Below are positions 13,541 through 15,339 of a DNA stretch of 64,000 nucleotides, in pieces. How positions within the stretch are numbered: position 1 is the first letter of the stretch; the number at the start of each line of letters is the position of its first letter. The stretch lies in NCBI RefSeq assembly GCF_009931435.1, contig NZ_CP043414.1; one strand, given 5' to 3'. The stretch comes from Escherichia coli (GTDB lineage Bacteria > Pseudomonadota > Gammaproteobacteria > Enterobacterales > Enterobacteriaceae). The position numbers and the translations under genes were made by a program. The notes beneath the pieces were generated by a model. It saw only the letters and a program-made list of their open reading frames with translations, had not been told where the DNA came from and did not search any database.

Positions 13541-13630
13541 ATGCCTGATGCGACGCTTAACGCGTCTTATCAGGCCTACCGCTCGTACCATTTGTCCAGG
13601 GCGGATAAGGCGTTTACGCCGCATCCGCCA
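13541..13630. repeat. REP/BIME element between ycfJ and ndh
   Basis: gcctgatgcgacgcttaacgcgtcttatcaggcctac plus ggcggataaggcgtttacgccgcatccgcc. Confidence 0.7.
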
Positions 13631-13641
13631 GTACAAGCCGA

Positions 13642-14946
13642 TTAATGCAACTTCAAACGTGGACGGATAACGCGGTTAATACTCCCCACCAGCATCATTA
13701 ATCCGGTTTTAAAGTAACCATGCAGCGCAATCTGATGCATTCTGTATAGCGAGATGTATACAAAGCGCGCAATTCGTCCTTCAATCATCATTGAGCCGCG
13801 CGTCAGGTTACCCATCAGGCTACCGACGGTGGAGAAGTTCGACAGCGATACCAGAGAACCGTGATCTTTATACTGATAATTTTTCAGCGGCTTACCGTTC
13901 ATCTGCGCCAGAATGTTGTTCATTGCGCAGGTTGCCATCTGGTGTGCGGCCTGCGCACGCGGCGGAACAAAGCCCCCTTCCGGACGCGGGCATGACGCGC
14001 AGTCGCCAATAGCGTATATGTCTGGATCGCGAGTGGTTTGCAGCGTCGGTTCCACCACCAGCTGGTTGATACGGTTGGTTTCAAGACCACCGATATCTTT
14101 CAGGAAGTCTGGCGCTTTGATCCCGGCTGCCCACACCATCAGATCAGCCTCAATATATTCACCATCTTTAGTGTGCAGGCCGCCTTCATCAGCACTGGTG
14201 ACCATGGTTTGCGTCAGCACGCGAACGCCAAGTTTCGTTAACTCATTATGGGCCGCAGCAGAGATACGTGGCGGTAATGCAGGCAAAATACGTTCGCCCG
14301 CTTCTACCAGTGTTACGTTCAGGGCTTCGTTGGTCAGGCCTTTGTAACCATAGCTGTGCAGTTGCTTGACCGCGTTGTGCAATTCTGCGGAGAGTTCTAC
14401 ACCCGTCGCGCCGCCGCCGACAATCGCAATGTTCACTTTACCATTCGCGCCCAGGTTGGCGGAGTATTTCAGGAACAGATTCAGCATCTCCTGATGGAAA
14501 CGACGCGCCTGATGCGGGTTATCGAGGAAAATGCAGTTCTCTTTGACTCCTGGCGTATTGAAATCGTTAGAGGTGCTGCCCAACGCCATTACCAGGGTGT
14601 CATAGGCGATTTTACGTTCCGGAACCAGCAGTTCACCTTTCTCGTCGCGCAGTTCTGCAATAGTGATTGTTTTCGCTTCACGATCGATATCAATGACGGA
14701 ACCCAGCTGGAACTGGAAACCATGATTGCGCGCATGGGCCAGATAGCTCAACGCATCGACGCCTTCATCAAGCGAGCCAGTCGCCACTTCGTGCAGCAGC
14801 GGTTTCCACAAGTGGCTGTGGTTACGATCGACCAGCGTAATTTTGGCTTTTTTCTTGCGTCCCAGCTTATGTCCCAGCTGTGTCGCCATTTCCAGCCCAC
14901 CAGCACCGCCGCCGACAATCACAATTTTTTTCAATGGCGTAGTCAA
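13642..14946 (-). CDS. ndh: Type II NADH:quinone oxidoreductase (NDH-2)
   Basis: Start at TTG 14946 gives [25 protein letters not shown] (434 aa) with two dinucleotide-binding motifs; the track ORF begins 9 codons upstream. Confidence 0.9.
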
Positions 14947-15208
14947 CGTGACCCCCTTAAATTTATTAACCAATTGTTAACTAATGGTTATTAATATAGC
15001 TCTTAATTAACAACAGGTTACAGCAATGAAAATGTTCTTCGTTATTGAGAATAACATGAATGGTGCATTGGTCATACCAAAATTGATGTTAATCAAGTTT
15101 TGTTGCTGAAAAGATAGGCTGATTTACCGGATGAGATCAAAAAATACAGCTTATTGTTTATTATTTAAACGAATTCAGGAGGGTGAGACGTATATGGAGG
15201 GCGTTTGG

Positions 15209-15339
15209 TAGGCCTGATAAGACGCGAGCGGCGTCGCATCAGGCACATTGCCAGTGTCGGATGCGGCGTGAACGCCCTATCCGACCTACAGAATTTACAG
15301 AATCTGGAACGCATCAGGTATCAGCAAGGTTACCTGATG
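15209..15339. repeat. REP/BIME cluster plus perfect 9-bp-arm inverted repeat downstream of ycfP
   Basis: taggcctgataagacgcgagcggcgtcgcatcaggc, gtcggatgcggcgtgaacgccctatccgacctac, and catcaggta-N10-tacctgatg. Confidence 0.7.

Follow-up and report, generated by a model that had tools for sequence, protein, structure and literature searches.

Palindromic sequences recur at five intergenic sites in a 64,000-nt stretch of DNA (hereafter the window), and two of these sites lie beside ndh; the question that they raise is what the elements are and what they are likely to do. The window is a segment of the E. coli chromosome that extends from potD to pyrC, and compared to K-12 it is ~97% identical, collinear, and without any additional gene. 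Descriptions of REP/BIME elements date back to the 1980s, and a sequence-only reading of the window had assigned REP-like palindromic units to all five sites. The analyses presented here indicate, with a probability of roughly 0.85, that all five sites represent ordinary E. coli REP/BIME elements and are the positional homologues of K-12 REP100 to REP104. Sequence identity, hairpin potential, extragenic position, high copy number and homology to K-12 were each demonstrated directly. The five loci are already annotated in K-12 under these names, and the earlier finding was right in substance and not new; its discovery value is small, and the practical gains concern annotation, corrected gene context and local variability.

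Identification of eight REP units at five intergenic sites

Published Y, Z1 and Z2 REP sequences, as given in the Methods of PMC11208160, were used as queries for nhmmer. Across the whole 64 kb, exactly eight units were detected, every one within the five sites and with E-values from 1e-3 to 5e-7; no further REP unit was found elsewhere in the 64 kb with the Y, Z1 and Z2 queries. Units were typed on the basis of nhmmer scores and not of global-alignment identity; global alignment assigns Z2 units wrongly to Z1, since the Z1 sequence fits entirely inside Z2 if gaps cost nothing. A unit is designated + when it reads TGCC...CTAC on the + strand. Every element is made up of one unit or two, each an imperfect palindrome of 30-40 nt that belongs to type Y, Z1 or Z2; the components are as follows.

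Site 1, 560-594, + strand: Y unit (REP104 homologue), CTAC tail at 591-594; nhmmer match Y 560-593(+), E=1e-3
Site 1, 595-625, no strand: L-type linker of 31 nt, IHF-like site ATTCAATTCATTG at 606-618
Site 1, 626-657, - strand: Z1 unit, GCAG tail in place of GTAG; nhmmer match Z1 628-656(-), E=6.5e-5
Site 2, 13542-13580, + strand: Z2 unit, intact, the extra unit at the REP103 locus, IS621 target ATCAGGCCTAC at 13569-13579; nhmmer match Z2 13543-13579(+), E=1.6e-4
Site 2, 13581-13597, no strand: linker of 17 nt that joins two tails, read directly from the sequence
Site 2, 13598-13630, - strand: Y unit, CCAG tail in place of GTAG; nhmmer match Y 13598-13629(-), E=4.8e-5
Site 3, 15207-15245, - strand: Z2 unit (REP102 homologue), GTAG at 15208-15211, IS621 target at 15208-15218; nhmmer match Z2 15208-15243(-), E=8e-4
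Site 3, 15246-15254, no strand: linker of 9 nt between two heads, read directly from the sequence
Site 3, 15255-15290, + strand: Y unit, CTAC at 15286-15289, 14-nt arms that are 86% complementary; nhmmer match Y 15256-15288(+), E=1.3e-4
Site 3, 15310-15341, - strand: perfect hairpin with 11-bp arms (15310-15320 / 15331-15341) and a 10-nt loop
Site 4, 35032-35060, - strand: short degenerate unit (REP101 homologue), perfect 9-bp arms (35033-35041 / 35051-35059)
Site 4, 35073-35107, + strand: Y-like unit, CTGAT-type stem, CAAC tail; nhmmer match Y-like 35074-35106(+), E=3.3e-5
Site 5, 46350-46384, + strand: Y unit (REP100 homologue), a 35/35 exact match to published Y; nhmmer match Y 46350-46384(+)
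Site 5, 46385-46420, no strand: L-type linker of 36 nt, perfect IHF consensus AATCAATAAATTG at 46397-46409
Site 5, 46421-46448, - strand: decayed second unit (GTAGACCGATAAGTTTGCACACCGGGCA), aligned with site 1, K-12 REP100 and REP104

Matches to the Rfam family RF02564 (naRNA4, BIME-2-derived) were likewise confined, within the window, to these five sites. Only 15211-15286(-) reached the gathering score of 59.5 bits, with a full-length match of 70.9 bits, and the remaining four sites scored 52, 40, 38 and 27 bits, all below it. The 84-nt pair at 15207-15290 was found at no fewer than 40 places per genome in 5284 records, which amounts to at least 215,538 places summed over these records. The REP-like palindromes that had been claimed for all five sites are thus confirmed far beyond chance, as the units match both the consensus and RF02564 and are multi-copy (at least 40 per genome). 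Their local density is unexceptional; the 355 REPs in 4.64 Mb given in PMC4550694 predict 4.9 elements per 64 kb, and the five observed therefore equal the genome average.

The defining features of REPs listed in PMC3333891 are present in these units. The Y, Z2 and Y-like units are imperfect palindromes with arms of 14-15 nt that are 86-87% complementary, and seven of the eight unit folds have an internal loop at the same stem position, with a larger one in the Y unit of site 1. The GTAG/CTAC foot is intact in five units (560-594, 13542-13579, 15208-15245, 15255-15289 and 46350-46384) and mutated in the other three, to GCAG in 626-657, to CCAG in 13598-13630 and, on the complementary strand, to GTTG in 35073-35107. 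The REP transposase requires this tetranucleotide in vitro (PMC3333891), and because they lack it, the units at 626-657, 13598-13630 and 35073-35107 are probably no longer substrates of TnpA-REP.

All five sites are intergenic; the neighbouring genes are convergent at two of them and in tandem at the other three. The distance from the stop codon to the first hairpin is 11 nt for ndh, 12 nt for cobB, 8 nt for yceF and 10 nt for ycfP. The 3' regions are far more stable than shuffled sequences, with fold z-scores of -6.7, -5.6, -4.8 and -5.7.

Correspondence with K-12 REP100 to REP104

The names and coordinates of the K-12 elements were taken from the supplement of bioRxiv 10.64898/2026.03.23.713779, and homology was assessed by pairwise alignments, by the same nhmmer scan run on K-12, and by the supplement coordinates. 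REP100 (flgF-flgG), REP101 (rluC/yceF), REP102 (ycfP-ndh), REP103 (ndh-ycfJ) and REP104 (cobB/ycfZ) have intergenic positions, orientations and Y units in common with the five sites; the comparison with K-12 that had been suggested for copy number and orientation therefore yielded concordant orientations and homology to REP100 through REP104.

At site 1, the Y unit (560-594) is identical to published Y at 30 of 35 positions, folds as a hairpin and aligns to K-12 REP104. The IHF-like sequence ATTCAATTCATTG has one mismatch to WATCAANNNNTTR, with 0.03 such matches expected in the linker stretch, and the Z1 unit has a perfect 8-bp outer stem, with 12 nt separating its outermost pair from the stop codon of cobB (670-672). 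REP104 of K-12 is located between cobB and ycfZ; ycfZ-ymfA are missing from the window, and as a result the REP104 homologue falls between cobB and potD.

The fifth element had been described as ending at 46384; however, it extends to 46448, as the decayed unit at 46421-46448, located 27 nt past the flgF stop codon, was missed. K-12 REP100 measures 98 bp (1134587-1134684). The linkers of sites 1 and 5 and those of K-12 REP100 and REP104 align with one another, and perfect matches to the IHF consensus WATCAANNNNTTR number six in the window versus 2.4 expected. Judging from their sequence, the L linkers of sites 1 and 5 probably bind IHF on DNA. Site 5 is positioned 3' of flgF (46476-47231, minus strand) and 45 nt upstream of the flgG start (46305), in the interior of the flgB-J operon, and the earlier statement that all sites occupy the 3' ends of transcription units consequently fails here. 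The gene assignments made in the sequence-only reading were right for three of the five sites; the element at 13541-13630 follows ndh and not ycfJ, and the one beginning at 46351 follows flgF and precedes flgG. The corrected context places the elements 3' of ndh, ycfP, cobB, yceF, rluC and flgF.

Site 4 consists of a Y-like unit and a short degenerate unit. The degenerate unit is 8 nt past the yceF stop codon and inside the span of K-12 REP101 (1145929-1146003); on its own it gave no significant nhmmer match to the Y consensus (E=8.4), and the pair 35032-35104 scored 52 bits on RF02564. The Y-like unit lies between the convergent genes yceF and rluC and is identical to that of REP101, which K-12 lists within a predicted bidirectional terminator. 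A perfect repeat with 9-bp arms had been reported at 15209-15339. Such a repeat does exist, but it is the one at 35033-35041 / 35051-35059 in site 4, whereas the repeat at site 3 has 11-bp arms and ends at 15341, 2 nt further than described.

Elements on the two flanks of ndh

Sites 2 and 3, which flank ndh, each comprise one Z2/Y pair, the composition of BIME-2. Site 2 follows ndh and precedes ycfJ (12876-13415, minus strand), and its Y unit, 11 nt past the ndh stop codon (13642-13644), provides the first hairpin in the 3' UTR of ndh; the ndh 3' region folds at -57.2 kcal/mol (z=-6.7). The REP units of site 3 stop at 15290, and 15291-15341 comprises a spacer and a separate hairpin. This hairpin (15310-15341; -17.5 kcal/mol, z=-3.9) is 10 nt past the ycfP stop codon (15352-15354), its stem is kept in five other strains, and its arm TACCTGATGCG resembles the REP head (TGCCTGATGCG). 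On this resemblance, the hairpin is taken to be derived from a REP head and is not counted among the canonical REP units.

The full-length match of the site 3 pair to RF02564 (70.9 bits against a gathering score of 59.5) falls on the strand transcribed with ycfP, and it could be read as the sign of a gene on the minus strand at 15211-15286 for a nucleoid-associated non-coding RNA like naRNA4, which would act with HU to bridge REP cruciforms and condense the chromosome. PMC4550694, which describes most REPs as transcribed and REP325 naRNA4 as acting with HU, is in line with this proposal; however, we consider it very unlikely. RF02564 was built from the Z2/Y repeats of REP325, and any heads-facing Z2/Y pair with a short linker is therefore expected to score, while the four other sites are under the threshold. 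No promoter-like site was detected in the ycfP-ndh gap, the sole one in 12700-16000 being inside ndh. Moreover, deletion or over-expression of REP325/naRNA4 causes no nucleoid compaction, and REP-REP contacts are independent of HU (bioRxiv 10.64898/2026.03.23.713779). The Rfam naRNA4 match in this region is best annotated as a Z2/Y REP pair and not as a dedicated RNA gene.

Proposed role in 3'-end stability and transcription attenuation

As REP/BIME elements, the five sites most likely serve as 3'-UTR hairpins that would block exonucleases and, with Rho, attenuate transcription, a role that is already known and whose mechanism is carried over from K-12 and model REPs. The units would be co-transcribed at the 3' ends of cobB, ndh, ycfP, yceF, rluC and flgF and would fold into stable hairpins that lack a U-tract. 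By stopping 3'-to-5' exonucleases, the hairpins would define and stabilise the 3' end of the upstream mRNA; pausing of RNA polymerase at the hairpins would favour partial, Rho-assisted termination, and read-through into ycfJ, ndh and flgG would thereby be reduced. The units themselves may be non-autonomous relics that are maintained and reshuffled by a REP-associated tyrosine transposase encoded elsewhere in the genome, and such reshuffling would explain the structural variation between strains at these loci.

In the K-12 entries, a mapped Rho-binding/termination region shares 74 nt with REP102, and REP103 is 3-12 nt upstream of one; however, the overlaps of REP100 and REP104 with Rho regions are antisense to the upstream gene, which counts against the mechanism. 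A dual role as stabiliser and attenuator has been experimentally shown for REP325. By analogy, the K-12 homology and the Rho regions at REP102 and REP103 lend support to the general role in mRNA 3'-end stabilisation or termination that had been put forward for these elements. The 8-12-nt spacings after ndh, cobB and yceF may also lower translation, a point outside the main claim; REPs within ~15 nt of a stop codon reportedly lead to ribosome stalling and tmRNA tagging, an observation attributed to Liang, Rudd and Deutscher in Mol Cell in 2015.

The hairpins might instead be conventional Rho-independent terminators whose resemblance to REPs is accidental, since they are GC-rich stem-loops directly past stop codons, and in K-12 a small number of REPs do coincide with intrinsic terminators. 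This explanation is likewise very unlikely, because no T-run follows any unit on either strand, and a terminator scan found none in 12700-16000 or 46200-46600, nor at the REP site in 34900-35250. The sole true intrinsic terminator nearby is that of potD (464-491), which is apart from the REPs, and accidental resemblance is also at odds with a sequence family that has at least 40 copies per genome.

Structural variation and insertions at the ndh flanks

The IS621 target ATCAGGCCTAC (11 nt, with a CT core) occurs exactly at 13569-13579(+) and 15208-15218(-); the natural target sequence and specificity of IS621 are given in PMC11208160. Insertions of IS621 and IS1397 into the ndh-flank units were observed directly in other strains. 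IS621 is inserted at the CT core in the Z2 unit of site 3 in strains N96 and RMDEC465 (15210-15211 duplicated, CT reading as AG on the + strand), and IS1397 is inserted in the loop of the Z2 unit of site 2 in strain MEI003 (TAAC, 13558-13561, duplicated); the window itself contains neither IS621 nor IS1397. The insertions fit the published REP targeting of both elements, IS621 being a bridge RNA-guided member of the IS110 family and IS1397 a member of the IS3 family.

Six sampled strains yielded three alleles of the ycfP-ndh element. In the first, Y is paired with a full Z2; in the second, with a short Z1-like unit; and in the third, a deletion has fused the Z unit with the ycfP hairpin. In strain FCI1, a deletion joins the arm of the 15310-15341 hairpin to a Z unit. 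The ndh-ycfJ region has only 80-90% identity in ~30% of records. A K-12-type allele, with its 17-bp deletion in Z2, would fall in this 80-90% band.

The earlier reading had the elements bracket ndh, and they do flank the gene; however, their architectures differ and they do not form a composite structure. The flanks do contain inverted matches (13542-13580 versus 15207-15245, 39 nt and 90% complementary; 13598-13630 versus 15255-15287, 33 nt and 88% complementary), as would be expected if the two elements worked as a pair of inverted repeats between which ndh could be flipped or mobilised as a cassette. Such a cassette is nevertheless extremely improbable. The units run Z2, Y ... Z2, Y and are not mirrored, with tails facing across a 17-nt linker at site 2 and heads facing across a 9-nt linker at site 3, and there is consequently no long inverted repeat around ndh. 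The 4-kb region is collinear, with one piece covering at least 80% of it, in 5419 of 5426 genomes, and no genome with ndh inverted between the elements was found among the matches listed. In addition, K-12 has REPs in both of the same intergenic regions with the orientation of ndh unchanged.

That ORFs 13440-13670(+) and 15183-15368(+) are real small proteins is likewise extremely improbable. The frames are open over 76 and 61 codons, but neither has a Pfam family match, and neither K-12 nor the closest RefSeq genome has an annotation for them. Compared to K-12, the frames contain indels of 17, 10 and 9 bp, and 13440-13670 overlaps, in antisense, the 3' end of ndh; all of this upholds their earlier description as spurious. 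Masking of the REP sites would keep both ORFs from being called.

Structural variation and IS621/IS1397 insertion have hot spots at the ndh flanks, which matters for strain typing and for users of IS621 bridge recombination in E. coli. It is conceivable, although doubtful, that the ycfP-ndh alleles are not neutral and set the read-through from ycfP to ndh and from ndh to ycfJ as well as the stability of the ndh mRNA; if true, REP turnover would adjust, from one E. coli lineage to another, how strongly the respiratory NADH dehydrogenase II is expressed.

Comparison with known REP and BIME systems

Compared to K-12 REP103 (1167403-1167432), site 2 has the Y unit in common; however, the adjoining Z2 unit is intact in the window and reduced to a 17-bp-deleted remnant in K-12. 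Similarly, REP102 of K-12 carries a Z1-like unit that is 10 nt shorter than the full Z2 unit in the window, with 9-nt and 10-nt indels nearby. Both ndh flanks resemble BIME-2 and REP325 in having Z2 and Y units in inverse orientation across a short linker. Whereas REP325 comprises 12 units, each ndh flank has one pair and no tandem array; these are therefore single pairs of BIME-2 composition and not arrays. The pair at 13542-13630, with tails facing across its 17-nt linker, differs further from REP325/naRNA4 and scores just 32-38 bits on RF02564.

Sites 1 and 5 are of the BIME-1 type (RIP/RIB), in which Y is followed by a long linker that contains an IHF site and then by a unit that is Z1 at site 1 and decayed at site 5. 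They depart from it in that the second unit of site 5 is decayed and the IHF motif of site 1 has one mismatch; they share with it the Y unit, a conserved linker of 31-36 nt with an IHF-consensus motif and the inverted second unit, and the presence of one copy per locus at both sites fits the description of BIME-1 in PMC3333891.

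REP units in the window

The window was scanned using nhmmer with the three REP sequences (Y, Z1 and Z2) given in the Methods of PMC11208160, at a cut-off of E<0.05. Eight REP units were recovered from the whole 64 kb with no further match at E<0.05, and near-identical consensus sequences used as queries returned the same eight. All of them lie at the five intergenic sites at which a sequence-only reading had placed palindromic units.

REP units detected by nhmmer (+, unit reads TGCC...CTAC on the + strand)
560-593, +, Y unit
628-656, -, Z1 unit
13543-13579, +, Z2 unit
13598-13629, -, Y unit
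15208-15243, -, Z2 unit
15256-15288, +, Y unit
35074-35106, +, Y-like unit
46350-46384, +, Y unit, a 35/35 exact match to published Y

An independent check came from the full Rfam library, whose models are curated externally. RF02564 (naRNA4), built from Z2/Y repeats of K-12 REP325, matched exactly these five sites and nowhere else in the window, scoring 70.9 bits on 15211-15286(-), above its gathering score of 59.5, and 52, 40, 38 and 27 bits at the other four (gathering score 59.5). The 84-nt pair at 15207-15290 occurs in at least 40 places per genome, in 5284 records, which makes the REP family a highly repeated, dispersed one. Relative to shuffled controls, far more stable folds were found for the ndh 3' region (-57.2 kcal/mol, z=-6.7), the ycfP 3' region (-64.6 kcal/mol, z=-5.6) and both strands of the yceF/rluC gap (z=-4.8 and -5.7), and five of the eight units retain the GTAG/CTAC tetranucleotide. 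Palindromic units are confirmed at all five sites. The sites belong to an ordinary, already annotated and already known repeat class, and five elements per 64 kb is the genome average, 4.9 being expected from the 355 REPs in 4.64 Mb given in PMC4550694.

Genomic setting

Gene coordinates were taken from the closest RefSeq genome and from ORF lists.

Genes flanking the REP sites
potD, ends 456, +
cobB, 670-1491, -
ycfJ, 12876-13415, -
ndh, 13642-14946, -, TTG start
ycfP, 15352-15894, -
yceF, ends 35024, +
rluC, ends 35137, -
flgG, 45523-46305, -
flgF, 46476-47231, -

The whole window is E. coli chromosome, collinear in reverse orientation with K-12 MG1655 at ~1,117,000-1,182,000 (~97% identity). 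From this low identity, and from the presence of relatives at least 99% identical in only ~15 of 5426 complete genomes, the source lineage is judged to be uncommon within E. coli. Strain 24A16CRGN010, the closest among the relatives listed, carries IS200/IS605-family tnpA insertions in the fhuE-ptsG (21687-21692) and pabC-fabF (27806-27811) intergenic regions, neither of which is present in the window. Gathering-level Rfam matches to the RNase E 5' UTR element (36307-36643, +), the SraB sRNA (34278-34446, -) and the PyrC leader (58374-58423, +) are expected K-12 features and appear unremarkable. Two 40-nt sequences, 23245-23284 and 58324-58363, are 70% alike (AGGGCGC...GCGCCCTTTATTT) and resemble terminators with a hairpin followed by a T-run; both are probably unrelated intrinsic terminators.

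Architecture of the five sites

Site organization (tail, unit end with CTAC/GTAG; head, opposite end)
Site 1, potD/cobB, 560-657: Y(+), 31-nt linker, Z1(-), tails facing
Site 2, ndh-ycfJ, 13542-13630: Z2(+), 17-nt linker, Y(-), tails facing
Site 3, ycfP-ndh, 15207-15290: Z2(-), 9-nt linker, Y(+), heads facing
Site 4, yceF/rluC, 35032-35107: Y-like unit and a short degenerate palindrome whose 9-bp arms pair perfectly (35033-35041 / 35051-35059)
Site 5, flgF-flgG, 46350-46448: Y(+), 36-nt linker, decayed inverted unit at 46421-46448

Several details of the sequence-only reading required correction. Site 2, which had been assigned to the 3' end of ycfJ, starts 11 nt past the ndh stop codon and upstream of ycfJ, and therefore belongs to the 3' end of ndh. 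Site 1, placed at the ends of both potD and cobB, lies 12 nt past the cobB stop codon; potD has its own canonical intrinsic terminator at 464-491(+), a 12-bp stem followed by TTTTTTATTT, which is distinct from the REP pair lying 70 nt beyond it, and site 1 is therefore mainly in the cobB 3' region. Site 5 had been given as 46351-46384 at the flgG 3' end, closing a transcription unit; that span holds the Y unit, but the element reaches 46448 and sits within the flgB-J operon, 27 nt downstream of flgF and 45 nt upstream of flgG. Near site 1, ycfZ and ymfA (~1.2 kb between cobB and potD in K-12) are absent from the window, with the junction at 517-522, between potD and site 1 and ~40 bp from the element; this contiguous potD-cobB arrangement occurs in only 15 of 5426 complete genomes.

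Beyond site 3, a 19-nt spacer is followed by a perfect hairpin that stands apart from the REP units and has 11-bp arms (15310-15320 / 15331-15341); the 9-bp arms given earlier are what a cut at 15339 would leave. The arm TACCTGATGCG is similar to a REP head. Strain FCI1 (NZ_CM172811.1) has a deletion in the homologue of 15245-15339: the Y unit is gone, and TACCTGATG, the right arm of the hairpin after ycfP, directly abuts the Z unit CGCATTTTATCAGGCCTAC. The deletion looks as if a REP head had recombined with the REP-head-like arm. Given this resemblance and the FCI1 deletion, the 15310-15341 hairpin is regarded as REP-head-derived and not as a canonical REP unit.

REP/BIME elements had been said to bracket ndh, and elements do lie on both flanks; a composite structure is ruled out, as the unit order is unmirrored and the linkers differ. 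Of 5426 complete E. coli genomes, 5425 matched a 4-kb query around these elements, and 5419 are collinear across the ndh region. The two repeat-overlapping ORFs, 13440-13670 and 15183-15368, are present and were justifiably called spurious: they have no Pfam match, lack annotation in RefSeq relatives and are disrupted by indels in K-12.

REP-specific insertions in other strains

In other strains, REP-specific insertion sequences are placed precisely in both ndh-flanking Z2 units. In strains N96 and RMDEC465, IS621 is inserted at GGTAG|AGGCCTGATAAG (bar, insertion point) with the dinucleotide duplicated (window 15210-15211). This point is the CT core of ATCAGGCCTAC (window 15208-15218), which is the natural IS621 target reported in PMC11208160. 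In strain MEI003, IS1397, a known REP-specific element, interrupts the loop of the 13542-13580 Z2 unit, and TAAC (13558-13561) is duplicated. The window itself carries neither IS621 nor IS1397. These insertions are independent evidence that the ndh-flanking units are genuine REPs.

Possible roles

The units in the window belong to the REP sequence family, have hairpin potential and lie just past stop codons; terminator scans at the REP sites found no U-tracts after the hairpins. In K-12, 74 nt of REP102 fall within a mapped Rho-binding/termination region, REP103 is found 3-12 nt upstream of one, and REP101 is inside a predicted bidirectional terminator. In the model element REP325, the upstream transcript is stabilised and the downstream one attenuated, partly via Rho. 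A recent study (bioRxiv 10.64898/2026.03.23.713779) reports no general half-life effect of REPs and strong context dependence. If the Rho link and the dual role of REP325 are transferred from these K-12 data to the window, the ndh, ycfP, cobB, yceF, rluC and flgF transcripts may end at, or be trimmed to, the hairpins, which would shield them from 3' exonucleases and could lower read-through into ycfJ, ndh and flgG. The earlier interpretation holds in kind (REP/BIME, 3'-end hairpins), though not in several of its details.

Comparison with K-12 and with BIME-1

Annotated MG1655 REPs were taken from the supplement of bioRxiv 10.64898/2026.03.23.713779.

K-12 counterparts (bioRxiv 10.64898/2026.03.23.713779)
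REP100, 1134587-1134684, flgF to flgG, site 5
REP101, 1145929-1146003, yceF / rluC, site 4
REP102, 1165740-1165814, ycfP to ndh, site 3
REP103, 1167403-1167432, ndh to ycfJ, site 2
REP104, 1180355-1180450, cobB / ycfZ, site 1

The identical nhmmer scan of K-12 found units at exactly the REP100-REP104 coordinates, and pairwise alignments established positional homology at 5/5 sites, with differences at both ndh flanks. The Z2 unit between ndh and ycfJ is intact in the window but carries a 17-bp deletion in K-12; between ycfP and ndh, the full Z2 unit of the window corresponds in K-12 to a Z1-like unit that is shorter by 10 nt, with additional indels of 9 and 10 nt nearby. Across records, identity to the window over the ndh-ycfJ region is 95% or more in 70% and 80-90% in ~30%, the latter being the range expected for K-12-like alleles. 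The ycfP-ndh region reaches at least 95% identity in only 199 records and shows three structural types among six sampled strains.

Site 5 can be aligned over its whole length to site 1 and to K-12 REP100 and REP104. The linker of site 5 contains a perfect IHF consensus (46397-46409) and that of site 1 an IHF-like motif with one mismatch (606-618), and both L linkers probably bind IHF. Both sites conform in type to BIME-1 as defined in PMC3333891.
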